Assembly: GCA_038882955.1 (NCBI GenBank)
Contig: JAVZNC010000009.1
Location: 1-25,454, forward strand
Direction: 5' to 3'
Origin: Candidatus Bathyarchaeia archaeon
Lineage (GTDB): Archaea; Thermoproteota; Bathyarchaeia; Bathyarchaeales; Bathycorpusculaceae
Length of the DNA stretch: 25,454 bases
The notes under the pieces are model-generated. The model was not told the DNA's origin, ran no database searches, and saw only the letters and a list, made by a program, of their open reading frames with translations. A program made the position numbers and the translations under genes. Shown here in pieces: positions 10,933 to 23,131 of this stretch (position 1 is its first letter; every line of letters begins with the position of its first letter).

Positions 10933-12339
10933 CTAAAATTGATAGTCCCCTCTATTTTTCTGCGTTTTGCCCATTTTCTCAAGGATTTTGCCATAGGTTC
11001 TTAGGATTTTTAGGGTTTTGACTCCCTTTTCTGGGAGGTTGTAGACTGGTATGTTGCTTTCGCCAATAACCCTATAAACAAGTTCGAAGTCTTCGCCTCC
11101 AGCTGCCACGTCCACAGCTGGCTTTTTAGGATACTTTGCTGTGACTTGCGGAATGACTTTCGCGTCTTCAGGCTCAAAGAAGCATGACTTAAGCATGTTT
11201 ATGACTAGAACTCCATCAACATTTTTGTCTGCTAAGACAAGGTCTAGTATTTCCTTGTATCTCTCTGCTCTTGCATCAGCTATCATGTCAATGGGGTTGG
11301 CTGCATCCATTCCTGGATAAAGACTTTCAATCTTCCTTTTCGTATCATCTGACAGCCTTGCAAGTTTTAGACTGTTTCTTGCAACGGCATCAGCTGCCAA
11401 TATGGCTGGTCCGCCTACATTGCTTACTATGGCTATGTTGTCGCCGAACATGGGAGGCTGCTTTGAAAGAGCTATAGCCGCATTCATAAGCTCCTCCGGG
11501 TCTTCAACCCTTATTATTCCAGCTTTTTTGAAGGCGGCATCGAAAATTTCATCTGAACCAGCCATTGAGGCGGTGTGAGATTTGGCTCTATGGGCGGATT
11601 CTTGGGTTATTCCGCCTTTTAGGGCTACAATTGGCTTTTTAACAATTATTTTTCTCGCTTCTTCTATGAATTTTCTGCCGTTTTTAATGCCTTCCATGTA
11701 TAGGCATATAACCTTTGTTTCTTTGTCTCTGGCGAGGTAACGCAACAAGTCAATGTCATCTACGTCTATTTTGTCTCCCATGAAGGCGAACTTGCTTATG
11801 CCAATTTTATAGTAGCAAGCCCAGTCGAGGAGGCATGCGCCAACCCCGCCGCTTTGGGAAATTACCGCTATGCTTCCCTTTTTAGGCATAACGTCCTCCT
11901 CAAATGTTGTGTTCAGCCCATTAGTGGTGTTTATAACGCCCAAAACAGTGTTTGGTCCCAAAATTCTAACGCCATACTTCTCTTTAAGCCTAACTAGTTC
12001 TCGACGCTGTTCGTCTTTGTACCCGCCAGTAATCATGATGAAGGCTTTAACGCCTATCCTTGCGCATTTTTTCGCCTCAACTATGGATATTTCAGGCGGA
12101 AGCATGATGACTGCAAGTTCTGGAACCTTTGGCAACAACTCTATGCTTTGTTCCTCTTTTCCGTCAACGTCCCTTACGCAAATTTCTCCTTTGAAGAACT
12201 CCTTCATGTTATGTATTACGCTTCTGAAAAGTTGTGGAGAGCTCAAACCCACTTTTTCACGCATTTTGCTTGAACCTATTAGGATAACGCTTGATGGCTC
12301 GAAGATAGCGTCCACTCTACTCATAAATTTAGCCTTCAA
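10933..12339 (-). CDS. acdA: Acetate/acyl-CoA ligase (ADP-forming) alpha subunit
   Basis: ILGPNT, SQSGG, YMEG, SHTASMAG (phospho-His) and NPIDM; no ATP-grasp domain. Confidence 0.85.
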   Translation of the reverse strand: MKAKFMSRVDAIFEPSSVILIGSSKMREKVGLSSPQLFRSVIHNMKEFFKGEICVRDVDGKEEQSIELLPKVPELAVIMLPPEISIVEAKKCARIGVKAFIMITGGYKDEQRRELVRLKEKYGVRILGPNTVLGVINTTNGLNTTFEEDVMPKKGSIAVISQSGGVGACLLDWACYYKIGISKFAFMGDKIDVDDIDLLRYLARDKETKVICLYMEGIKNGRKFIEEARKIIVKKPIVALKGGITQESAHRAKSHTASMAGSDEIFDAAFKKAGIIRVEDPEELMNAAIALSKQPPMFGDNIAIVSNVGGPAILAADAVARNSLKLARLSDDTKRKIESLYPGMDAANPIDMIADARAERYKEILDLVLADKNVDGVLVINMLKSCFFEPEDAKVIPQVTAKYPKKPAVDVAAGGEDFELVYRVIGESNIPVYNLPEKGVKTLKILRTYGKILEKMGKTQKNRGDYQF

Positions 12340-12397
12340 AGCAGCTTAATGATGGAAGGAGAAAATATGCAGTTCACATTCATAAATTTAACCATAG

Positions 12398-13171
12398 CTA
12401 CTTTTGAGTAACCTTCATATATGCAAGCATGGCAAACGATGCAAAAACCAGCGCATATAAGGCTATGTCGATAAGCATGTAAGGCGCAAATGGGGGTTCT
12501 TTCAGCAGAAACGCTCTTGAAAGGTCTGCACCGCAACTTAATGGATTGTAACGCGCCAAAAGTACCAATTGAGGAAGGGCTCGTTCTATAAGCCCCATGG
12601 GATAGAATACGGTGCTGCAGAAGAAAAGCAAATAATAAACCACGCCTCTGGCTGTTATGTACTTTTCAAAGCTTGTTGTTGAAACAGCCAAAGCTATGCT
12701 TAAACCAGAAGTTCCCAAAGAAACCAAAAACAAAGCCACCAAAATTGTGAAAAAATCAAGCGGTGCGGGGAAAACCCCCGTGTAAAGGTAGGTTATGCCA
12801 AGCGTTGTGGCCAGAAGAGGCGCCATATAGATTACTCCTCTCAAACCTCCGGCTAAAACCCTTCCAACAGCCAGTTCCCATCGTTTTATCGGCAAGCTCA
12901 GCATGTAATGGGAAATTTCACGTCTAACCTCCATGTTTATCTCCCTTCCAATCATGAAGGCTGCGGCAAAAAGTGCTGTTATTGTCAAGCCTGGAGCGAA
13001 GAAAACAAAGTAGTCTGTTATAACGTTTGGATTAACCATCCTTGTGTAGACTATTGCCATTATGAAGAGGTCGGCAAGGTTCATGCTAACCATCCCGGCA
13101 ACCCACCACTTGTAACGGAAGAAATACTTGAAGTCCCTCTCCACAATGGTCAATATGGGTTTTACTGCCAC
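12398..13171 (-). CDS. ABC-2 type exporter permease
   Basis: About six TM segments, LSLPIKRWELAVGR, FYP and NPLS motifs. Confidence 0.88.
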   Translation of the reverse strand: MAVKPILTIVERDFKYFFRYKWWVAGMVSMNLADLFIMAIVYTRMVNPNVITDYFVFFAPGLTITALFAAAFMIGREINMEVRREISHYMLSLPIKRWELAVGRVLAGGLRGVIYMAPLLATTLGITYLYTGVFPAPLDFFTILVALFLVSLGTSGLSIALAVSTTSFEKYITARGVVYYLLFFCSTVFYPMGLIERALPQLVLLARYNPLSCGADLSRAFLLKEPPFAPYMLIDIALYALVFASFAMLAYMKVTQK

Positions 13172-13947
13172 CCTCCCCCCTCCAATCTGCGCTCATGCAA
13201 AATGATGCCTAGGAAGGTGAATATTGAAAAGAAGGCAACTATTCCGAAAGCTGCCAATAAAGGCGAGACAGAGGCTGCTGATTCCAACCCAGCTCCCCAT
13301 CTGAAAAAGTCGGCGGCAAATGTTAGCGGGTTAACTAGGGCAATTCCCTTATAGTATGGTGGCATGTAAGCTATTGGATAAAGCGTCGTGCTCAATCTAA
13401 TAATTAAGGCGTCAATAACACCCATCAAAATGTCAAATCGGTCAGAGGATTTTATGCTGACAGCCAATGTGATGCTGAAGCCAGCCACGCCAAAAGCGAA
13501 AAGAAAAAGGGATAATAAAGCCACAAGAAGCTGTAGGGGATTCGAAACTCCGATCAGGTAGAGAATAAAAATCATCATAGGTCCAACATATAGGAAGCTT
13601 CTTAAACCGCCTCCAACAGACCTGCCCAAAACAAGATCTTTTCTTGAAACAGGGACGCTCAGTAAATATTCTATGACGCCGTGGTCTGCTTCTTCGTAAA
13701 TGTCGTAGCCGATGAAAACTGTTGTTGAATATAGCATTGTTATTATTATTCCCGCTGCGTAATAGTTGAAGTAGCTTCCTCCGACAGCGGCTTGAACATC
13801 AATTCGGAACATGTGGTTTACAACTAATCCGAAAAGGGCTATTTGTGAAACAAACCATATGGCGCGCATAATTAGCAGAAACTTGTAACGCAAAAACATT
13901 TTAATGTCTCTTTCAGCAACAATCCAGACCTTTCGAAGGCTTATCAT
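13162..13947 (-). CDS. ABC-2 type exporter permease
   Basis: TM pattern, LSVPVSRKDLVLGR, LYP, NPLTF; overlaps both neighbours. Confidence 0.88.
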   Translation of the reverse strand: MISLRKVWIVAERDIKMFLRYKFLLIMRAIWFVSQIALFGLVVNHMFRIDVQAAVGGSYFNYYAAGIIITMLYSTTVFIGYDIYEEADHGVIEYLLSVPVSRKDLVLGRSVGGGLRSFLYVGPMMIFILYLIGVSNPLQLLVALLSLFLFAFGVAGFSITLAVSIKSSDRFDILMGVIDALIIRLSTTLYPIAYMPPYYKGIALVNPLTFAADFFRWGAGLESAASVSPLLAAFGIVAFFSIFTFLGIILHERRLEGGGWQ

Positions 13948-14900
13948 TCCTTCTGAGCCTCTTCAATAGTTAAGCCAGTATAATGCGCAAAAACATCATC
14001 CAACGAAGGCTCACTCATACGTATAGACTTGACTTGAACCTGCATCTTCATAAAGAATTCGGTGATTTTCGGCAAGACTTCTTCAGCCTGGTTCAAATAA
14101 ATTTTCAAGTGGTTCTGCTTTATCGCCAAAACATTTACAACCCTTGGAATCCCCTTAAGTTTTTCAAGAACATTGATCGAGGCGTCCTTTTCAAGGGTTA
14201 TTTCCACAACATCTCCGCCTGGTATGCTGTCCTTCAACTTTTTGGGTTCGTCACAAACTAGCAGTTTGCCCTTATGCATTATTGCCACTCTGTCTGAAAG
14301 CACGTCAGCCTCGTAAAGCTCATTCGTCGCCAAAAGAATAGTGGAACCCTCGTTTCTAAGGTCTCTTAGCATGTTCCATATCCTATGCTTGCCCACAACA
14401 TCTATTTGGGCTGTTGGCTCATCAACAATAGCAATTTTAGGTCTCTGAATTAAGATTTTAGCTATCTCCACCCGTTTCCGCATACCACCGGAAAAGGCGT
14501 GCACGCTTTTGAAACGGTCATTCCAAAGCTCAAGCTCCTCAAGAGCCCACCGCACCCTCTTCCTACGTTCGTCTGGGGGTAAACCGCAAACTTTGGCGTG
14601 CCAGTTAAGTATATCCCACGGCGAGTCAACCCACAAAAGCTTAGGCTCTTGAAAAGCCATACCGACAAGCGTCCTAGCCTTATCCGGTTCCCTATTAACA
14701 TCATAAGGCCCTATGAACGCTGTTCCTTCTGTCGGCTTAATAACGGTTGTAAGCATCAGCAATGTTGTTGTTTTTCCAGCTCCGTTAGGCCCGAGGATTC
14801 CGAGGATTTCGCCCTCTTCTACTTCAAGGTTTAGGTGGTCAACTGCTGTGAAATCGCCGAACTTCTTTGTGAGATTTGCAATGCGAATTATCGGCGCCAT
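13944..14900 (-). CDS. ABC exporter ATP-binding protein (DrrA-like)
   Basis: Walker A GPNGAGKT, signature FSGGM, Walker B IVDEPT, C-term EPSLDDVF. Confidence 0.93.
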   Translation of the reverse strand: MAPIIRIANLTKKFGDFTAVDHLNLEVEEGEILGILGPNGAGKTTTLLMLTTVIKPTEGTAFIGPYDVNREPDKARTLVGMAFQEPKLLWVDSPWDILNWHAKVCGLPPDERRKRVRWALEELELWNDRFKSVHAFSGGMRKRVEIAKILIQRPKIAIVDEPTAQIDVVGKHRIWNMLRDLRNEGSTILLATNELYEADVLSDRVAIMHKGKLLVCDEPKKLKDSIPGGDVVEITLEKDASINVLEKLKGIPRVVNVLAIKQNHLKIYLNQAEEVLPKITEFFMKMQVQVKSIRMSEPSLDDVFAHYTGLTIEEAQKE

Positions 14901-14943
14901 TCCAATTCCTTACGTGAAATAAACACAGTTGATTGGCGGTTAC

Positions 14944-16266
14944 TTAAAGATTGCGTGAAAGCAGCTCAAAAGCACGCCTTTCAGCTTTTTCAATAACGGC
15001 ATGCTCATCCAACGTTTTGACAACCCTATTTTCCATTAAAATTTTGCCGTCAACTATTACTGTGTCCACGTCGCTTCCCTTAGCCGAATACAATATGCTT
15101 GCATAAACATTGTGCAAGGGCTTCAAATGGGGTTTTAGAAGGTCAATTAAGATTATGTCCGCTCTCTTTCCTACCTCTAATGAGCCTATACTTTTTTCCA
15201 GCCCTAGCGCCTTAGCCCCATCGATGGTTGCCATCTTCAAAGCTTCATGGGCGGATAAGACTTCGGGCTTCTTATAAACAAACTTTTGGAGTAAAGCCCC
15301 AAACTTCATGGTTTCAAATATGTCAAGGGAATTGTTGCTTGCCGGCCCGTCGGTCCCAAATGCTGTGTTAACGTCTAACTCGATAAGCTCTTTAACTTTT
15401 GCTGTATTCAATCCAAGCTTCATGTTAGCCACTGGAACATAAGCGATGTTCACCTCATGTTCCGCCAAAATACGTTTGTCCCCTTCTGACAGGTTGATGC
15501 AGTGGGCCGCGAGAACGTGTCCACCAAAAAATCCAAGTCTCTCTAGAAACTCAACTTCGCTGCAGCCATACTTTATTTCGAAATCCTTGAACAGTTCCGC
15601 CGACTCGGCCAAGTGGATGTGGACGCCAACCCCAAGCTCTAAAGCTTTATCCTTAACTTCTTTAAGCAGTTCTGGACTGCAACTGTAAGCCGCATGCGGT
15701 CCAAGCATTGTTTTCACTCTTCCACCAGCATATCCATTAAAAGACTTGGCGAAGTCGACGCTTGCATTTAGCATTTTCTTGCCCTGTTCCTTATCACCAG
15801 CCTCGATTATACCCTCCGCTAAAATTGCCCTCAAGCCGCTTTCAGAAACAGCCCTGGCAACCGCATCCTCGTGGAAATACATATCTGCAAAACATGTGGT
15901 TCCACTCTTCAACATTTCCAAGCAACCTAAAAGCGACCCAACATAGACATCGTCACGTGTCAACTTCGCCTCTAAAGGCCATATTGTCTCCCGAAGCCAC
16001 ACATCCAATGGCTTGTCTTCGGCCAACCCTCTAAAAAGTGTCATAGCTACGTGAGTGTGACAATTTATCAACCCTGGCACCGCAGCTTTACCCTTGGCAT
16101 TTATCTTTTCACTCGCAGATATGCCAGATGCAGATGCGTGTTTCCCAACAAAAACTATTTCCCTATCTTTTACGGCTATGGCGCCATCTTCAATAATGTC
16201 GGCGCTGTCCCTCCACATGGGCAAAATAATGCATCCATAAATAAGAATATCAGCCTTCATAGGCAC
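14944..16266 (-). CDS. Amidohydrolase, MTA/SAH/5'-deoxyadenosine deaminase (MtaD/DadD) family
   Basis: NCHTH, FADMYF, PHAAYSC, HIHLAE, AHC and GTDGPASNN motifs. Confidence 0.85.
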   Translation of the reverse strand: MPMKADILIYGCIILPMWRDSADIIEDGAIAVKDREIVFVGKHASASGISASEKINAKGKAAVPGLINCHTHVAMTLFRGLAEDKPLDVWLRETIWPLEAKLTRDDVYVGSLLGCLEMLKSGTTCFADMYFHEDAVARAVSESGLRAILAEGIIEAGDKEQGKKMLNASVDFAKSFNGYAGGRVKTMLGPHAAYSCSPELLKEVKDKALELGVGVHIHLAESAELFKDFEIKYGCSEVEFLERLGFFGGHVLAAHCINLSEGDKRILAEHEVNIAYVPVANMKLGLNTAKVKELIELDVNTAFGTDGPASNNSLDIFETMKFGALLQKFVYKKPEVLSAHEALKMATIDGAKALGLEKSIGSLEVGKRADIILIDLLKPHLKPLHNVYASILYSAKGSDVDTVIVDGKILMENRVVKTLDEHAVIEKAERRAFELLSRNL

Positions 16267-16368
16267 CCCGGAAAACTAGAAAGGATGCGAGCAAATAAAA
16301 AGTATGCTAAAAGTTTTCTGATTTCCGGGCCCCTTTCTCCCCCTTTCAGAGCTCCGTCTAAACAGGGA

Positions 16369-16854
16369 TTAAAAGCTGAGCCTATGGCTATGTTTTTCTA
16401 CCCTCTTAATGAGGGAATGCAAAGCCGGCTGCGTCAAGTCTTCGCCTATTGCTGACCCTTTCGGGATTCCTGTAGTACCTATCTTCTTGCATATGAAATT
16501 GAGGGAGTCCTCTGTAAAGTTTAGGAGATTTTGTCCCTCAACTGTAAGCTTGTAAACTTTTCTAGGGCGTTCATTTGACATATCCCACTCGCTTTTGACA
16601 TAGCCGCTCTTTTCCAAGACATTCAAAAGTGGATAAATTGTGCTTGGACCAAAGTATACCCCGAAGTTTTTACGGATCTTGGTTATTATCTGGTAGCCGT
16701 GCATGGGCTGGGTGCTCAGGAACTGAAGCACTATCAAGTCTAGGAGGCCCTTCATGAGTTTAACCTGAACCTCTTTTGAATTGTTCACCACGGCTTTTCC
16801 CTTCCATTTTGTATTTCTGTTAAACTCGTATACGATATGTCCAGTTTTAGACAT
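16369..16854 (-). CDS. PadR-family transcriptional regulator
   Basis: PMHGYQII, GPSTIYPLL..LE, RPRKVYKLT. Confidence 0.9.
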   Translation of the reverse strand: MSKTGHIVYEFNRNTKWKGKAVVNNSKEVQVKLMKGLLDLIVLQFLSTQPMHGYQIITKIRKNFGVYFGPSTIYPLLNVLEKSGYVKSEWDMSNERPRKVYKLTVEGQNLLNFTEDSLNFICKKIGTTGIPKGSAIGEDLTQPALHSLIKRVEKHSHRLSF

Positions 16855-16869
16855 ATCTCAAGACTCTAT

Positions 16870-16962
16870 AAAGCATAAACAAAAATATAAAGGTTCACAC
16901 TTACCAAAAACATAAAAAAGCATAACAAAAGCATAACAGAGACTATTCCAAAACATGCATAA
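16870..16962. repeat. Phased short direct repeats (AAAG/AAAA)CATAA between the divergent PadR genes
   Basis: CATAA cores at 16874, 16911, 16921, 16932 and 16958; the central three are 10-11 bp apart. Confidence 0.55.
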
Positions 16963-17019
16963 GCCATATAAACTCAACACGGATAAGTCAAAAATAGAAC
17001 ACAAAAAGGCAAAAGCCAA

Positions 17020-17343
17020 ATGGAAGAAAACCTCAAAAAAGAAATTGTTCAACACATAACCAGAAACCTACTAGACATCCAAATACTAATGCTAGTAAAT
17101 AAAGAACCAACGTGGGGATACAAAATAAAAAAGCGAATAGAAGCCTTTTCAGGGCTGAAAATACGCCACGGAGCCCTATACCCACTACTAAAAAAGCTCG
17201 AGGATAGAGGTCTAATCAAAAGCCAAAAACAACAACAAGGAAAACGATTGAAAAAAGTTTATGCAATGACAGAGAAGGGGAAAGAATATATTAGGATATA
17301 TAATGCCATGTTAATGGAACGTGTCATGAACAAAACACAATGA
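17020..17343 (+). CDS. PadR-family transcriptional regulator
   Basis: PTWGYKI, HGALYPLLKKLE, KKVYAMTEKG. Confidence 0.9.
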   Translation: MEENLKKEIVQHITRNLLDIQILMLVNKEPTWGYKIKKRIEAFSGLKIRHGALYPLLKKLEDRGLIKSQKQQQGKRLKKVYAMTEKGKEYIRIYNAMLMERVMNKTQ

Positions 17344-17406
17344 ACATTGCATTGCAAACGTTCTAGCTATTTATTTTTAAATAGTTTTAGCGGTAAATTA
17401 AAAATT

Positions 17407-18411
17407 ATGAGCTCAAAAGAAAATAGGGGTATATCTCACACAATTTTAGAAATTCTCCGGGAAAAAAGCAGAAACGGTTTGATTTACACGCGAAAAATAA
17501 TGCTGGCTGAAAAAATTCAAAGCAATGTCATACGGAAAGCGCTCCAATATTATGTTAATAATTGGGGCATATCAACACATCCAGCTCCCTTTATATTAGC
17601 ATATGAAGCGGTTGGTGGAAACCCGAACGATGCGATGGAGGCTCAAGCAGCGATAGTTATGTTATCTGCTGCATTAGATATCCATGATGATATAATTGAT
17701 AAATCTGTTAGGAAACGTGGAAAACTAACTGTGGTTGGAAAGTTCGGATCAGATATTGCGCTTCTTTTAGGGAATGCCTTTTTTATAAAAGGTTTCTCCC
17801 TTTTTAGTACATATATTGGTAAATTAGACGAAGAAAAAAGAAACAAGGCTATACAGATACTAAAAGAGGCAATGTTCGAGGTTGGAGATGCGCATGCTTT
17901 AGAGTTTAATTTCCGGGGAAAAACTAACGCAGATCCTGAAGAATACATGAAAATTTTACAAATGAAAGCGGTAACAACACAGGTTACTATGCAGCTTGGT
18001 GCGATATTCGGAGGTGGTACAGTAAAAGAAACAGAAGCTTTAGCAAGATATGGAAGGATCTTAGGAACATTAGCTGCGTTAAGAGAGGAATTTATAGATA
18101 TTTTTGATGTTCAAGAGCTGAATCAACGTATTCAAAAGGAATGTTTACCAATACCCATACTATATGCAGTACAAGATATGGATTCTAAAGAAATAAGAAG
18201 AATAATTTCACAAAGAACAGTGAAAAAGAATGACTTGCCTAAGTTACTTGAGATAATTTTTGGGTCCCATGAGGTCAAGGAGCTGAGGGAAAAAATGGAA
18301 TCCATGGCTAGAGTTTCTGCAAATACGGTCCAAGAGATTAAAAATGAAGAGATTAAAAGTTTATTAACTCAGTTAGCCGCATCTATGCTTGAAGATATTG
18401 CTGACCCTTAA
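17407..18411 (+). CDS. Isoprenyl-diphosphate-synthase-fold protein with degenerate SARM (ComQ-like prenyltransferase candidate)
   Basis: FARM DDIID (17686-17700) followed by RKRGK; SARM position reads REEFID (EEFID at 18085-18099); no GKRxRP motif; ATG at 17407 (track start 17347). Confidence 0.8.
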   Translation: MSSKENRGISHTILEILREKSRNGLIYTRKIMLAEKIQSNVIRKALQYYVNNWGISTHPAPFILAYEAVGGNPNDAMEAQAAIVMLSAALDIHDDIIDKSVRKRGKLTVVGKFGSDIALLLGNAFFIKGFSLFSTYIGKLDEEKRNKAIQILKEAMFEVGDAHALEFNFRGKTNADPEEYMKILQMKAVTTQVTMQLGAIFGGGTVKETEALARYGRILGTLAALREEFIDIFDVQELNQRIQKECLPIPILYAVQDMDSKEIRRIISQRTVKKNDLPKLLEIIFGSHEVKELREKMESMARVSANTVQEIKNEEIKSLLTQLAASMLEDIADP

Positions 18412-18461
18412 ATCCCTGGATAACTACGTACTGGGATTTTCCTTTTTTTCGTAGCCTTCAT
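18408..18461 (-). CDS. Putative 17-aa peptide MKATKKRKIPVRSYPGI
   Basis: Manual translation; GGGAGTGGG immediately before the ATG; upstream BRE-TATA; stop interlocks with the prenyltransferase stop (shared TTAA). Confidence 0.5.
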   Translation of the reverse strand: MKATKKRKIPVRSYPGI

Positions 18462-18470
18462 CCCACTCCC

Positions 18471-18508
18471 TGTGTATAATTGTTCTACACAAATACTTAA
18501 GATTTGCT
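18471..18508 (-). promoter_or_regulatory. Promoter (AGCAAAT-CTTAAGTA) and inverted-repeat operator (TGTGTAtAA-N3-TTcTACACA, 18471-18491) for the 17-aa ORF
   Basis: TATA at 18494-18501 predicts a TSS near 18470; an 8/9 inverted repeat lies between TATA and TSS. Confidence 0.5.
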
Positions 18509-18607
18509 ATTGCCTAAGAACTTGTATTCAAATTGAACATATGAATTGGTGATTAATAATGCTATTATCCATAATATAGCCTCTAAGATATTGTTGGTCG
18601 AAATACC

Positions 18608-19819
18608 TTGGGAGGCATATCCGGTAAAGAAGTTTATTGGAGGGATTTCACTCCAGCTTTAATAGTTGTAGTGAACAGCTTAACGTGGAACGCATTTATG
18701 TTATCAATTTTCAGTACAATTGTTGGAAGCCTTCCGATATCACCTACCCAAGTTTTAACGCTTTTTTCTATTGAATATGCCTCAATTGCAGCGTCCGCTG
18801 TTATTGGGTCTTTTTTCTTTCCATTTTCTAGGCGGATAACAATTTTTATATGGATGCTCAGCGGAGCTTTATTGCCAATTTCATTTTTCACTATACAAAA
18901 CAATGATCTATGGGTTAATGGGTTAATTTCCTCTTTTTTTGGCGTTTGTCTTGGAGCTGGGCTGCCCTCAGCTCTTGCATGCTTTGCTGACTCGGCAATT
19001 GTTGAGAAACGCGGTTTTCTTGGGGGTATTGTCTACTTATCTGTAGGTCTCTCAACAGCCTTTTTTGTGGTTGTCGCAGCTTTCCTCGGTAATACAATGA
19101 TTCTTCTTGGAATGATTTTATGGAGGCTATCTGGAGCTTTTCTTTTTCTACTTACATATAAGAATAAAAAACAAGAGCATCCGATTCCTTCTTACTCGTT
19201 TATTCTGAGACAACGAGATTTTATGTTGTATTTTTTGCCTTGGGTAATGTTTTGCATTGTTAATTGGATTGAAGCACCCATCTTACAAAATCTTTTCGGG
19301 GAACTCTACGGTTTAATCGGTTTCGCAGAAATTATAATATCAGGCGCGTCTGCATTTTTGGGTGGCATCATTTCAGATCATGCCGGAAGAAAACGTGTTA
19401 TAATGATCGGTTTCGTCATGTTAGGTATCGAGTACGCTATGCTCAGTCTCTTTTCAGAAGTGCCATTTTCATGGTATGCTTATGCAATTTTTGACGGTAT
19501 TGCTTGGGGGATGTTTGCATCCGTTTTCTTCATGGTTTTGTGGGGTGATATTAGCGGAAATTACCAGAAGGAGAAATACTACACGTTAGGAGGGCTTCCT
19601 TATCTCCTTGCCATGTTCTTGTCAGAACTATTTAAACCATATGTTGGCTTAATGCCTTTAGTTACTGCTTTTTCTTTGGCTAGCTTTTTCTTGTTTTTGG
19701 CTGTGGTCCCGCTTGTATATGCTCCTGAGACTTTGCCTGAGAAAGCTATTAAAGAAAGGGAACTTAGGGGTTATATTGAGAAGGCTAAGCGGATTAGGGA
19801 AAAGTTTACCAAAGGCTAA
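18608..19819 (+). CDS. MFS transporter
   Basis: About 12 TM segments; motif A GIISDHAGRKR; C-term APETL. Confidence 0.88.
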   Translation: MGGISGKEVYWRDFTPALIVVVNSLTWNAFMLSIFSTIVGSLPISPTQVLTLFSIEYASIAASAVIGSFFFPFSRRITIFIWMLSGALLPISFFTIQNNDLWVNGLISSFFGVCLGAGLPSALACFADSAIVEKRGFLGGIVYLSVGLSTAFFVVVAAFLGNTMILLGMILWRLSGAFLFLLTYKNKKQEHPIPSYSFILRQRDFMLYFLPWVMFCIVNWIEAPILQNLFGELYGLIGFAEIIISGASAFLGGIISDHAGRKRVIMIGFVMLGIEYAMLSLFSEVPFSWYAYAIFDGIAWGMFASVFFMVLWGDISGNYQKEKYYTLGGLPYLLAMFLSELFKPYVGLMPLVTAFSLASFFLFLAVVPLVYAPETLPEKAIKERELRGYIEKAKRIREKFTKG

Positions 19820-19848
19820 GTAAAAAGTTTGCTTTGTTGGTGAGCTGG

Positions 19849-20970
19849 GTGTTCTTTCATGTTATGTTGACGACGGAATGTGACCTTCAGTGTCGTTATT
19901 GTTTTAGTGAAGCCCTAGAGGATTTTGGTGGCGATTTTGGCGAGTTTAGTGTTGATTATTCTTTGCCTAATCGTTTAAGCTATGATGTTGGTTTGTTACA
20001 GCGTTTTTGCGGGCTTGATTCTGACTGTTTTTTGATTTTTTATGGCGGTGAGCCTCTTTTGTGCCTTGAAGATGTTAGGCGTGTAATGGACTGCGTTGGG
20101 GTTAGGGGTTTTGCTGTTCAAACGAATGGTTTGCATTTGGACAGTTTGGAGTCAGCCTATGTTAACCGTTTTAGTGTTATTCTAGTGTCTGTTGATGGGG
20201 ATGAAGCTTTGACGGATTATTATCGTGGGCGGGGTGTTTATCGTAGGGTTGCGGAGAATTTAAGGTTGGTTAGGAGTAATGGCTTTGAGGGTGAGATTAT
20301 TGCTCGAATGACTGTTATGGAGGAAACCGACATTTTCAAGCAGATTTTGTGGCTTCTAATCAATGATGACTTTGCCTTTTCTTCTATTCACTGGCAGCTT
20401 AATGCCGGTTTTTGGAACGATTTTGATAGGCGAAATTTCAAAGAATGGATTGAGAAAAGTTATAATCCTGGAATTCGCCGCCTTGTGAAGTTTTGGGTTG
20501 ACCAGATGGAGAAGCGGGGTGTTATTTTGAGGCTTTATCCGTTTTTGGGTGTAGCACAATCTCTTTTGTTTGGCGAGGAGAAATCGCCTTTAAGGTGTGG
20601 CGCTGGTTGGATCAATTACGCTATTCAGACGGACGGGCATATTGTGCCTTGTCCTAGCATGTGGGGTATGCGGGACTTTTACGTGGGGCATATTAACAAT
20701 GCGCATCCGTTGAGGCTTAAGAAGGTTTTTGTTGGTGAGCCATGCACAAGCTGTGGAATCTTCAACGTTTGTGGTGGAAGATGCCTATACGCCAACATAA
20801 CAAGACGCTGGAGCCCCGAAGCCTATAGGCTTGTCTGCAAGACTGTTGAGAACATGATTAATGCCATAATGAACGAGTTGCCGAGAATTAGAGAGCTTAT
20901 TAGAACTGGCAGGATAAGGGTTGAGGATTTCAACTTTTTGAAATATGTTGGATGCGAAATAATCCCATAA
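19849..20970 (+). CDS. Radical SAM/SPASM protein, resembling the AF0577 (TIGR04084) putative peptide-modifying family
   Basis: CDLQCRYC, YGGEP, QTNG, SVDG; SPASM cysteines CGAG..PC..CxxCx5CxxxC..C; C-term EIIP; GTG at 19849 after GGTGA (track start 19834). Confidence 0.85.
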   Translation: MFFHVMLTTECDLQCRYCFSEALEDFGGDFGEFSVDYSLPNRLSYDVGLLQRFCGLDSDCFLIFYGGEPLLCLEDVRRVMDCVGVRGFAVQTNGLHLDSLESAYVNRFSVILVSVDGDEALTDYYRGRGVYRRVAENLRLVRSNGFEGEIIARMTVMEETDIFKQILWLLINDDFAFSSIHWQLNAGFWNDFDRRNFKEWIEKSYNPGIRRLVKFWVDQMEKRGVILRLYPFLGVAQSLLFGEEKSPLRCGAGWINYAIQTDGHIVPCPSMWGMRDFYVGHINNAHPLRLKKVFVGEPCTSCGIFNVCGGRCLYANITRRWSPEAYRLVCKTVENMINAIMNELPRIRELIRTGRIRVEDFNFLKYVGCEIIP

Positions 20971-21002
20971 GTATTTAATGCCATGCTGGCGTAGAAAAAT
21001 GG

Positions 21003-21515
21003 GTGGAAGATGAAATGAGTTACAAGAGAAAGTCTTGGCAGGAGAAGCTGGCAGATAAGAAGGGTTTACCGAAGGTGCTGAAATTGGAAAAGAGTTTTCC
21101 TTGTTATAATGCGGTTCACAAGATGGGTGCTGAAGTGGGCGACGAAGTTGTTATTGCTAACCCAAGCGAAGTCGTTGAAATAATGAAGAAAGTGCCGAAG
21201 GGAAAACTAATCACAATCTCTGAAATTTGCAAGAAAATCGCGGAAAAACACAAAGTCAAGGCTTGCTGTTCTCTCACAACTGGAATCTTCATTATGATTG
21301 CGGCGAATGCGGCTGAGGAAGCTGCTAGGAAAGGAAAAAATCTTGGAATTCCGTATTGGCGCACTTTGAAGGCGAATGGATTCCTGAATGAAAAGTATCC
21401 TGGCGGGGCTGAGGCGCATAAGGAACTTTTGGAAAGGGAAGGGTTTAAGATAACGCGAATAGGCAAGAAGTACGCCGTTCAGAATTATCAGGATTTCTTA
21501 CTGCGTGAAAGCTGA
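21003..21515 (+). CDS. MGMT-family DNA-binding / alkyltransferase-like protein
   Basis: KVPKGKLIT..I; PYWRTL in place of PCHRV; LLEREG. Confidence 0.75.
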   Translation: MEDEMSYKRKSWQEKLADKKGLPKVLKLEKSFPCYNAVHKMGAEVGDEVVIANPSEVVEIMKKVPKGKLITISEICKKIAEKHKVKACCSLTTGIFIMIAANAAEEAARKGKNLGIPYWRTLKANGFLNEKYPGGAEAHKELLEREGFKITRIGKKYAVQNYQDFLLRES

Positions 21516-21691: not shown

Positions 21692-22426
21692 ATGTTTAAT
21701 TCAAGTTGTGAGTCGAAGTTGCCGACCTTCTTAGAAATTGAAGGGACTATTGTGAAAGGGGTTTTTAAGAAGCGGCTAACCCGTTTCTCAGCACAAGTTA
21801 AGGTTGGTGAGAAGATTGTTGAATGCTTCTTGCCTAATCCTGGAAGACTCAGCGAATTGCTGTTTTCTGGTGTCAGAGTTGTCTTGAAGGAAGCGAGAAC
21901 AGCTGATGATAGGAAGACTGCTTATGACCTTGTCGGCGTCTACCATGATGGCAAAGTGGTTTCCATCGATGCCCGCATACCCAACAAGCTCGTTTTTGAA
22001 GCCTTAAGGAATGGGGACTTGCCAGAGTTTTTAGTCTACACGGTTATTAAGCCTGAACACTATTATGGGCGTGCAAAGTTTGACTTCTTCCTTGAAGGGT
22101 TAGGGCTGAAGCCCTGCCTTTTAGAGATTAAGTCCTGCACCCTTGTCCGCGATGGCGTAGCAATGTTTCCAGACGCCCCAACCGAGAGGGGTGCACGACA
22201 CGTTTTGGAGCTTGTTAAAGCCTTGAAGAATGGCTATAGAACAGCTGTGCTCTTCATTATTCAAAGAGACGACGCTTATATGTTTACAACGAATGATGAA
22301 ACAGACCCAAAATTTAGGACGACTCTTCGAGAAGCCCATAAGTGGGGAGTGGAGGTCTACGCCTACTCAGCGAGCTTCGCCAAAAACAGGGTGTGGCTTA
22401 ACGGAAAAGTTGAGGTTGTGCTTTAG
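21692..22426 (+). CDS. sfsA: SfsA DNA/RNA nuclease (sugar fermentation stimulation protein)
   Basis: R..RF, LPNPGRL, DFFL, EIKSCTL, FPDAPTERGARH and DPKF. Confidence 0.92.
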   Translation: MFNSSCESKLPTFLEIEGTIVKGVFKKRLTRFSAQVKVGEKIVECFLPNPGRLSELLFSGVRVVLKEARTADDRKTAYDLVGVYHDGKVVSIDARIPNKLVFEALRNGDLPEFLVYTVIKPEHYYGRAKFDFFLEGLGLKPCLLEIKSCTLVRDGVAMFPDAPTERGARHVLELVKALKNGYRTAVLFIIQRDDAYMFTTNDETDPKFRTTLREAHKWGVEVYAYSASFAKNRVWLNGKVEVVL

Positions 22427-22471: not shown

Positions 22472-23131
22472 TTGCGCATGAGAAGATTTAACCCAAAATT
22501 GATGGAGATGGCGTTAATGGCTAAGACTGTTCAGAGGAAGTTTGTGGCTGTTGACCCCGCCAAGTGCACGGGCTGTAGCCTATGCGAATACGTGTGTGTT
22601 TTAGAAAAGAATGAGCCTCTTTGGAACCCTTTGAGGTCTAGGGTTAGGGTGATACGCCTAACACCAGCCTTCAACCTCGCCTTAACATGCCGTTTCTGTG
22701 AGAATGCCCCATGCGTTAGAGCGTGCCCAAGAAAAGCCTTAACCCAGTCTGAGGAAGGCTTCATCCTAGTTGACGAGGCTAAATGCGACCGCTGCGGCTG
22801 GTGCATCCAAGCCTGCCCCTACGGTGGGATTTCACTTCACCCTGACAAGACTTCTGTTTTGGTCTGCGACTTGTGCAAAGACAAGACAGAAGGACCCCAA
22901 TGTGTGGAGTTCTGTCCAGAAGAAGCCCTGGAACTTGTGAGTGGAGATGATGTTGTAGCTAAGAAGTGGCTGACCGCCATGGAAAAGATACCAGCAGACA
23001 TTGAGAAGTTGACAAAACTTGTTAAGAGGCGAGAGTGGGCTGTCCTTTTCGAGGAAGCAGAAGACAGAGCGAAGAGGCTTTCGGAAAAGCTTGAGGCAAT
23101 AAACAAAAAGTGGGGCTACAAGCTAAAATAG
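22472..23131 (+). CDS. 4x[4Fe-4S] electron-transfer protein (DmsB/HycB-like) with a C-terminal helical extension
   Basis: CTGCSLCEYVC, CRFCENAPCVRACP, CDRCGWCIQACP, CDLC..CVEFCP; true start may be ATG 22517. Confidence 0.85.
   Translation: MRMRRFNPKLMEMALMAKTVQRKFVAVDPAKCTGCSLCEYVCVLEKNEPLWNPLRSRVRVIRLTPAFNLALTCRFCENAPCVRACPRKALTQSEEGFILVDEAKCDRCGWCIQACPYGGISLHPDKTSVLVCDLCKDKTEGPQCVEFCPEEALELVSGDDVVAKKWLTAMEKIPADIEKLTKLVKRREWAVLFEEAEDRAKRLSEKLEAINKKWGYKLK

Follow-up and report, generated by a model that had tools for sequence, protein, structure and literature searches.

What does an enzyme with the fold of an isoprenyl diphosphate synthase (IPPS) do when it lies, in an archaeal genome, end to end with an open reading frame (ORF) for a peptide of 17 amino acids (aa) and beside a transporter of the major facilitator superfamily (MFS)? 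This question is raised by a 25,454-nucleotide stretch of DNA (the window) from Candidatus Bathyarchaeia archaeon (GenBank assembly GCA_038882955.1, contig JAVZNC010000009.1), where these three genes follow a divergent pair of PadR-family regulators and precede a radical S-adenosylmethionine (SAM) enzyme of the SPASM type. An earlier examination of the sequence (the original prediction) had mapped these genes, all of which we found to be present, with Pfam and NCBIfam matches, and had read them as a ComQ/ComX-like system that makes, exports and possibly senses a prenylated peptide. Here we show that the short ORF is a conserved gene and that it is exchanged as a unit with its neighbors, and we weigh what the resulting cassette may do.

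The window corresponds to contig C9 in a Bathyarchaeia genome bin of 1.54 Mb (completeness 95.6%, contamination 6.1%). A search with the IPPS-like protein returned 899 relatives at E ≤ 1e-3, about 331 aa in length, and all those bearing a source name were from Bathyarchaeia. A profile built from 34 members yielded 233 confirmed places in species-representative genomes. The best 80 of these 233, together with the window and the window's in-genome paralogue, make up the 82 loci analyzed below; the window proteins were placed on them by tblastn. L-numbers are locus labels, and L004 denotes the in-genome paralogue region (G000:C4:160000-178000). At E ≤ 1e-40, the IPPS-like family occurs in 39 of 201 sampled genomes of the class, with one to four copies per genome, and it is clustered in few taxonomic families (e.g., 21 of the 27 genomes of the window's own family). 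Two contigs with a full Bathyarchaeia-type cassette, L007 and L050, are filed as 'Caldiserica bacterium' and 'Candidatus Acidoferrum', which probably reflects mis-binning and not transfer to bacteria.

A conserved micro-gene convergent with the enzyme gene

The IPPS-like gene (17407-18411, plus strand; PF00348, 97.7 bits) and the short ORF (18408-18461, minus strand) converge so closely that their stop codons overlap. The ORF encodes MKATKKRKIPVRSYPGI, a proposed precursor or substrate peptide of 17 aa with a polybasic leader, a P-V-R motif and a hydrophobic tail (SYPGI). Under a strict count, a minus-strand ORF with P[VIM]R was found within -40 to +160 nucleotides (nt) of the IPPS-like stop in 63 of the 82 loci. 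The plus-strand control gave 1 of 82, and in 100 dinucleotide shuffles the count averaged 0.8 and never exceeded 4. A stricter polybasic pattern was present in 60/82 loci (shuffle mean 0.08); over the full 1.35 Mb (both strands), it had 92 matches, 65 of which were at the micro-ORF site. Wider margins added four loci with P[VIM]R (67 in total), and a further ten carried variants such as KPKV, PAR or VRF, so that an adjoining ORF of this kind accompanies 77 of 82 enzyme genes. Members of the family are 12-31 aa long, occupy the same place and strand, and consist of Met, a Lys/Arg-rich stretch, P-[VIM]-R and a short hydrophobic tail (examples are MKKAKRKIPIRALPDI, MKKVKKRKVPVRTLPL, MRAKRAKKKDVPVRVWG, MAKKKKKPMRLYHI and MKRRKDKPIRPATFGWF). 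One locus, L060, has two identical micro-ORF copies (MEKRRAIRRKPKVLVW), located +5 and +314 nt past the IPPS-like stop in one enlarged spacer.

Codon and tail statistics were derived from 61 distinct micro-ORF sequences. All four Pro codons are used (CCA 34, CCT 12, CCC 8, CCG 7), as are six Arg codons from both the CGN and the AGR groups (CGA 23, AGA 18, AGG 8, CGG 6, CGC 4, CGT 2), and this synonymous usage points to selection on the amino acids. The micro-ORFs also share an upstream architecture. A Shine-Dalgarno (SD) sequence lies 5-13 nt ahead of the start in 49/61 sequences (shuffle mean 4.1), a TGTNNNACA palindrome about 26 nt ahead in 53/61 (shuffles 0.6), and a TATA-like box about 43 nt ahead in 57/61 (shuffles 21.6), with the MFS promoter region further out. 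In the window, these elements fall in the divergent promoter spacer (18462-18607), which also holds the MFS promoter region. Sequence reading and an alignment of 63 upstream regions place the SD complement at about 18462-18470 and the TATA-like box of the micro-ORF at about 18492-18501, with an inverted repeat, TGTGTA...TACACA, at 18471-18491 that includes TGTTCTACA at 18481-18489. The IPPS-like stop and the MFS start are separated by 100-300 nt in 72 loci, in most of which the distance is about 185-200 nt. Together, these data show that the micro-ORF is under amino-acid-level selection, with its own SD, TATA-like box and operator-like palindrome, in agreement with the original prediction of a real gene with its own TATA box, ribosome-binding site and operator. 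Gene callers have overlooked this micro-gene, and it is of note even without the chemistry discussed below.

The peptide tails are 3-9 aa long (most commonly four), and only 27 of their 260 residues are polar or charged. An aromatic residue (W/F/Y) is present in 45/61 tails, W in 23/61, and one tail has a Cys. The ComX rule of an aromatic acceptor three to four residues from the C-terminus, which had been carried over to this peptide, is thus not general in the family.

Enzyme, peptide and transporter genes are exchanged as one cassette

The MFS gene (18608-19819, plus strand; PF07690, 46.1 bits against an MFS_1 gathering score of 33.4) encodes the proposed exporter. All 77 loci with 1.5 kb or more of downstream sequence have an MFS gene behind the enzyme gene, in the same orientation, and a search for homologues of the transporter found only a Bathyarchaeia-specific family. 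The peptide gene is therefore genetically tied to both the enzyme and the MFS (micro-ORF in 77/82, MFS in 77/77), as had been proposed.

This tie extends to how the genes vary. Over 42 loci holding all parts, mean pairwise identities were 0.44 for the IPPS-like enzyme, 0.44 for the MFS and 0.69 for the radical SAM enzyme. The identities of the IPPS-like enzyme and the MFS were strongly correlated (Spearman 0.82), compared with 0.29 and 0.34 for either of these against the radical SAM enzyme. The peptide tail varied with the IPPS-like enzyme (Mantel 0.48; partial 0.46 when the radical SAM enzyme was controlled for) and with the MFS (0.41), while its partial correlation with the radical SAM enzyme was 0.002 (IPPS-like controlled).

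Close relatives were also compared at the DNA level. The window matches L038 with 85.3% identity in 12003-17285 and with 86.9% in 19668-20969; blastn gives no match for the stretch in the middle, and the peptide tails differ across the swap (SYPGI in the window, LCL in L038). On the left, similarity of the window to L038, L049, L061 and L004 stops at 17283-17291, and the cassette edges are about equal when the window is compared with L049, L061 and the in-genome paralogue. Six other locus pairs have a like gap, which opens close to where the upstream gene ends and closes 110-340 nt short of the MFS stop; in a seventh pair (L012/L016), weak similarity persists inside the gap. In the window, the replaceable stretch is 17286-19667. 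Its left edge is the final ~55 nt of the PadR 'b' gene (17020-17343, plus strand; PF03551, 72.8 bits, gathering score 27), and it comprises the IPPS-like gene, the micro-ORF, the divergent promoter spacer and the MFS gene minus its last ~50 codons.

The same boundary is seen within the genome. A PF00348 search identified three paralogues, namely a canonical synthase (contig C2), the window gene (C9) and a third copy (C4). A nine-gene array is doubled between C9 and C4 (12398-20970 of the window and 2764-11251 of L004) and consists, in order, of two ABC-2 permeases, an ABC ATPase, an amidohydrolase, PadR (minus strand), PadR (plus strand), the IPPS-like gene, the MFS gene and the radical SAM gene. 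DNA identity between the copies is 68-76% in the flanks and almost nil within the cassette, and the two IPPS-like proteins are 43% identical. Given the 6% contamination, the second array copy could conceivably come from another strain in the bin. These results demonstrate that the enzyme gene, the peptide gene and most of the MFS gene are exchanged as one hypervariable cassette between conserved flanks, an observation that is new here. So sharply bounded a hypervariable cassette is a notable population-genetic feature whatever its chemistry.

The enzyme, its proposed reaction and competing explanations

The IPPS-like protein falls below every NCBIfam cut-off; its best model is IdsA (117 bits against a cut-off of 468), and it scores 86 against 500 for GGPP_syn. 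A PDB profile search gave 1wy0 as the best structure match (1.9e-28), and the closest solved structures are ordinary geranylgeranyl diphosphate (GGPP) and octaprenyl synthases. In this search, unnamed 'prenyltransferase' entries scored no better than the ordinary synthases, indicating no special affinity to bacterial peptide prenyltransferases, and an ESM Atlas search retrieved only the family's own clusters. In this comparison through family models and PDB profiles, archaeal GGPP synthases come nearest to the enzyme, which gives no support to the ComQ-like kinship suggested for it.

Across the 82 loci, positions D91, H93, D94, D95, D98, K103, E166, K187, E237 and R241 are invariant (82/82), R226, D231 and W53 are each conserved in 81/82, and D/E occupies position 228 in 82/82 and position 227 in 71/82. 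The first Asp-rich motif (FARM), DxHDDxxD, is thus intact in every locus, and the second acidic motif is conserved in the form R-[DE]-[DE]-F-x-D (QDDILD in the genome's canonical paralogue becomes REEFID). Relative to that paralogue, with which the enzyme shares about 20% identity, the GGKRxR motif, the second Arg of RRG, the GQxxD motif and the GKxT segment are gone; in the alignment, GGKRWR stands against NNWGIS.., RRG against K-[HNYG]-x, and the GKRT segment is deleted. The C-terminus is acidic (LEDL). What we take to be the motifs for binding isopentenyl diphosphate (IPP), i.e., GKxxR, the second Arg of RRG, GKxT and a basic C-terminus, are thus missing. As in farnesyl diphosphate (FPP) synthases, the residues kept presumably bind Mg2+ and the allylic diphosphate, and those lost presumably bind IPP. 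The original description of an enzyme lacking chain-elongation motifs is accurate for the basic IPP-binding motifs but not for the acidic ones. With the allylic-diphosphate residues kept and the IPP residues lost, the enzyme should still ionize a prenyl diphosphate and must use another acceptor. The median net charges of enzyme (-4) and peptide (+5) are opposite, which fits, without proving, binding of the peptide in the remodeled pocket.

Tandem IPPS-like genes followed by a single radical SAM gene occur in L018, L039, L048 and L051, and also in genomes G077 and G136. In L051 the IPPS-like-MFS unit is repeated, and in L018 a micro-ORF comes after the second IPPS-like copy. These arrangements hint at heteromeric enzymes or at cassette stacking.

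We hypothesize that the locus is an archaeal, independently evolved cassette for peptide prenylation and export, specific to Bathyarchaeia, similar in make-up to clusters for peptides that are made by the ribosome and modified after translation (RiPPs) and divided into allele-like specificity types. We assign this reading a probability of roughly 55%; prenylation, export and sensing are steps that we infer from the genes and their conservation. The invariant core would be a GGPP-synthase-derived enzyme, a convergent micro-gene of 12-31 codons and an MFS gene divergent from the micro-gene. The polybasic and P-[VI]-R part of the peptide would bind the former IPP pocket, which now has conserved Glu, Asp, His and Trp residues together with the acidic C-terminus, and the enzyme would transfer a prenyl group to the peptide. 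Because some tails (16/61) are without aromatic residues, the prenyl group may go to the invariant Arg, to the C-terminus or to a tail residue specific to the type. Export of the product, or tolerance to it, would fall to the MFS, although an importer or receptor role can also be envisaged. The PadR pair, where present, would repress both divergent promoters, and the radical SAM enzyme, probably co-transcribed with the MFS in most loci, may further modify the invariant part of the peptide.

The allele-like diversification suggests a specificity function. By analogy with comQXP pherotypes, this could be signaling or kin recognition; it could also be antagonism by a cationic lipopeptide, paired with cognate self-protection. 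A bolder version would make the locus the first archaeal peptide pherotype or kin-recognition system, with ComQ-independent prenylation, a non-Trp acceptor (of one of the three kinds named above), a leader-minimal substrate of ~16 aa, and cassettes exchanged at fixed breakpoints that define mutually incompatible groups of Bathyarchaeia; we advance this only tentatively. What survives of the original interpretation as a whole is the hidden, conserved peptide gene tied to enzyme and MFS, and what found no support is the ComX aromatic rule, the kinship with ComQ and the PadR pair as a general component.

Enzymes resembling trans-type synthases of isoprenyl diphosphates (trans-IDS) are reported to prenylate ribosomal peptides in bacteria, with ComQ, PalQ and ChrPC as the examples (PMC13290415, PMC10853753). 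A 2026 review groups ComQ, the P domain of ChrPC and PalQ as trans-IDS-like peptide prenyltransferases and Ord1 as acting on free Trp, and the enzymes that it describes are all bacterial and Trp-targeting, with a conserved Gln before the second motif (PMC13290415). The Bathyarchaeia cassette resembles ComQ/ComX in that its enzyme has the IPPS fold, keeps the first Asp-rich motif intact and adjoins a small, highly variable ribosomal peptide. In Bacillus, the comQ-comX-comP polymorphism is described as extending into the N-terminal membrane domain of ComP, with neighboring genes conserved, and some com-like loci also have the peptide gene on the opposite strand (PMC4008528). Here, likewise, close relatives differ in the enzyme, the peptide and part of a membrane protein, between conserved flanks.

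There are also several differences. The Bathyarchaeia enzyme is probably of independent origin, given its closeness to archaeal GGPP synthases, and its second acidic motif is kept as [DE][DE]xxD with Arg before it and not Gln. Its peptide has 12-31 aa, compared with 52-73 aa for ComX, and a polybasic leader with P-[VI]-R; a conserved Trp is absent. The membrane partner is an MFS and not a histidine kinase such as ComP, the regulators are PadR proteins and not a response regulator such as ComA, and the host is an archaeon. No histidine-kinase receptor of the ComP or PalP type was present among the window proteins scanned (seven ORFs in 10933-16266, those in 16369-21515, SfsA at 21692-22426 and a ferredoxin-like ORF at 22472-23131). 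On our reading, the cassette is analogous to ComQ/ComX and not a member of that family.

Other known systems show similarly partial likeness. PalQ/PalX/PalP of Paenibacillus, the ChrPC P domain and Ord1 likewise represent members of the isoprenoid-synthase superfamily turned to peptide or Trp prenylation, and the acceptor of PalQ is placed at the extreme C-terminus of its peptide (PMC10853753). PalX, however, has a long NHLP leader, PalQ, ChrPC and Ord1 are bacterial and Trp-specific, and the Bathyarchaeia enzyme shares only the fold with them in the PDB profile search. Archaeal GGPP synthases of the IdsA type share its Pfam family, length, FARM and acidic second motif, but they have the basic IPP-binding motifs that it lacks, and its gene is part of a hypervariable cassette that includes one for a peptide. 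The ultrashort precursors of some RiPPs, such as biarylitides, are a precedent for very small ORFs as true precursors. Cyanobactin prenyltransferases of the ABBA fold modify Arg, Tyr or Trp, so that prenylation of peptides at the Arg guanidine or the Tyr oxygen has precedent. The biarylitide and cyanobactin enzymes have unrelated folds (P450 and ABBA), however, and are bacterial, with no comparable cassette polymorphism known.

Full-text literature searches yielded no archaeal counterpart, in line with the statement in the original prediction that no such archaeal system was known to it, and a peptide signal or RiPP-type lipopeptide of Bathyarchaeia was likewise not found in the searchable literature. 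Bathyarchaeia are among the most abundant uncultured archaea of sediments and hot springs. If the prenylation reading is correct, it would open a direct way into the study of cell-cell recognition or antagonism in this uncultured lineage, and would provide dozens of natural enzyme/peptide/transporter triplets with which to probe specificity. It would also extend to archaea, by independent origin and probably with a new acceptor residue, a chemistry that is so far described for isoprenoid-synthase-fold enzymes as bacterial and Trp-directed only (PMC13290415).

Several observations weigh against peptide prenylation. In five of the 82 loci (L037, L040, L041, L063 and L070), no micro-ORF was found even with wider margins and a looser motif. 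The characterized enzymes of this kind target Trp, which most tails lack, and a quarter of the tails have no aromatic residue at all; the residue before the second motif is Arg in 81/82 loci, not the Gln conserved in bacterial peptide prenyltransferases. A terpene synthase would account just as well for the apparent loss of IPP binding. Physical linkage of the three genes in one recombining cassette would by itself produce their co-variation, which alone is no proof of interaction, and the 82 loci, being drawn from related species, are not independent. As for transcripts, one raw RNA run (X3) had 0 reads at the locus and X4 had none; the only datasets that contain the locus (X1 and X2, labeled 'metatranscriptomic WGS' and probably DNA) gave exact low-depth contigs across it, and none of this is evidence either way.

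One competing explanation is that the IPPS-like protein is a terpene synthase or another small-molecule isoprenoid enzyme whose product is exported by the MFS, the micro-peptide being regulatory or accessory and not the acceptor. A kept allylic-diphosphate site with a lost IPP site is what a class-I terpene synthase needs, and many tails have no obvious nucleophile. Terpene synthases evolved from prenyl synthases in insects, a parallel for such a change, and PadR regulators and MFS/ABC exporters often deal with hydrophobic small molecules. This explanation does not account, however, for a 12-31-aa ORF with a hypervariable tail at the exact same site in 77/82 loci, or for the joint swapping of enzyme and transporter with that ORF. 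The former IPP pocket, moreover, has not decayed but holds a new invariant polar/acidic set. We consider a terpene synthase unlikely, though worth keeping in view.

The radical SAM/SPASM enzyme of the conserved flank (19834-20970, plus strand; TIGR04084, 302.3 bits against a cut-off of 225) might instead be the true peptide maturase, for example epimerizing or cross-linking at P-[VI]-R, with the IPPS-like enzyme doing something else. Its start lies 14-44 nt past the MFS stop, depending on the start codon chosen. It has a SPASM domain (TIGR04085, 38 bits against a cut-off of 27), and its translation contains the cluster motif CX3CX2C as well as CX12GX4C and CX2CX5CX3C, in keeping with a seven-Cys SPASM motif. 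The next-best matches of this protein are peptide maturases (PapB model, 1.8e-25), an Arg-Trp cross-linking radical SAM enzyme has been described (WprB), and the most conserved enzyme would pair with the most conserved part of the peptide. Of the 62 loci whose downstream sequence extends 5 kb or more, 56 have the gene close behind the MFS gene (no further than 6.5 kb). Yet five loci (L039, L055, L064, L072 and L075) keep the PadR pair, IPPS-like gene, peptide gene and MFS gene with no radical SAM gene within 6.5 kb, and the protein has no N-terminal leader-binding domain, its cluster motif beginning at about residue 17.

The wider distribution of the family also speaks against it as the maturase. 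TIGR04084 is above cut-off in 130 of 301 sampled Thermoproteota genomes and scores 400-640 bits outside Bathyarchaeia. Of 20 such loci that we fetched, 19 were without IPPS-like, MFS or PadR matches (L118 retains an MFS match) and none of the 20 had an adjoining micro-ORF, and the neighbors outside the cassette have no common theme (M20 peptidase, LysE, CBS, SAM synthetase and proteins without family). A quick tree recovered essentially one cassette-linked clade, made up of 56 linked rows and two without a full cassette (L118 and L119), with stand-alone Bathyarchaeia copies basal and other Thermoproteota on a long branch, so that the adjacency could persist by descent alone. A radical SAM maturase as the primary enzyme is thus improbable. 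Because the gene is absent near five peptide loci and stands alone elsewhere, the core consists of enzyme, peptide and MFS, to which the radical SAM protein may be an accessory tailoring enzyme or only a neighbor retained by descent. The original caution that it could be a mere neighbor was apt.

A non-catalytic role, in which the IPPS-like protein would modulate the genome's canonical GGPP synthase as the small subunits of heteromeric prenyl synthases do, is very unlikely. The acidic metal- and diphosphate-binding residues are all invariant (82/82), unlike in non-catalytic subunits. The loss of the IPP-binding motifs and the tandem paralogues noted above, which hint at heteromers, would suit such a role, but the canonical synthase is on another contig (C2), where it adjoins a 424-aa ORF taken by eye for an IPP isomerase, and both the peptide and the MFS would be left unexplained. 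Least probable of all is that the micro-ORF is untranslated, the wrong strand having been read and the conserved DNA being the terminator and 3' part of the IPPS-like gene or else an antisense RNA: the leader's Lys codons do form a plus-strand T-run just past the IPPS-like stop, as in an archaeal terminator, but 58 of the basic leader positions are Arg, whose codons give no T-run, the hairpin AAATCCC...GGGATTT is no better than shuffles (z = -0.23) with no terminator-like site found, and the synonymous variation at Pro and Arg (including CGN to AGR switches), the SD ahead of the ATG in 49/61 sequences and the open frame with a stop at constrained distance all argue for translation.

Regulators and other neighbors of the cassette

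The neighbors of the enzyme gene include MFS, PadR, radical SAM, ABC transporter and amidohydrolase genes. Co-occurrence of the enzyme with MFS, PadR and radical SAM genes had been suggested as a check on the original prediction, and it held for the MFS (77/77) and, in most loci, for the radical SAM gene (56/62). By contrast, of the 73 loci with 2 kb or more of upstream sequence, just 39 have a PadR gene there, and the PadR pair does not co-vary with peptide type.

In the window, PadR 'a' (16369-16854, minus strand; PF03551, 66.3 bits, gathering score 27) belongs to the conserved flank, with 55-89% identity in the related loci that carry it. The spacer between the two PadR genes is highly conserved. 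Its divergent control region contains the palindrome ATATGTC-N8-GACATAT (16836-16857), a candidate PadR operator that may resemble the ATGT-N8-ACAT operator of PadR, and an ATGTC-N7-9-GACAT-like palindrome is present in 34 of the 38 loci holding both PadR genes. This suggests autoregulation. The annotated N-terminus of PadR 'a' (16782-16862 region) overlaps these conserved palindromes, and CAACAG-N-CTGTTG is also found in 15/38 loci. Because a palindrome covers the annotated start, the true start is probably an internal Met just ahead of the PadR domain, and the stretch is probably regulatory. An operator shared by the PadR-PadR and peptide-MFS spacers was considered and rejected: the window has just two TGTWSWACA sites, a number that 11 of 100 shuffles also reach.

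Upstream of the PadR pair, the amidohydrolase is an MtaD/DadD-like deaminase and the ABC genes encode a DrrAB-like ABC-2 exporter. These genes were not retained as parts of the system, as they are present in only some loci and lie within the conserved flank. A defense-system reading was also set aside, PADLOC giving only weak viperin-like matches to the generic radical SAM core.

In loci without the PadR pair (L022, L023, L025, L027, L076, L078, L081, L082 and L118), a conserved protein C-terminus, containing SRRQS[IT]EKPxR, recurs upstream of the cassette. It lies 1.5-2.8 kb upstream of the IPPS-like stop and, in L118, about 1 kb upstream of the MFS gene. Downstream of the radical SAM gene, positions 21003-21515 of the window encode a protein of 170 aa whose match to O6-methylguanine methyltransferase is confined to the DNA-binding domain (PF01035, 33 bits). 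This gene is an insertion relative to L038, where the sfsA region comes nearly directly after the radical SAM gene.

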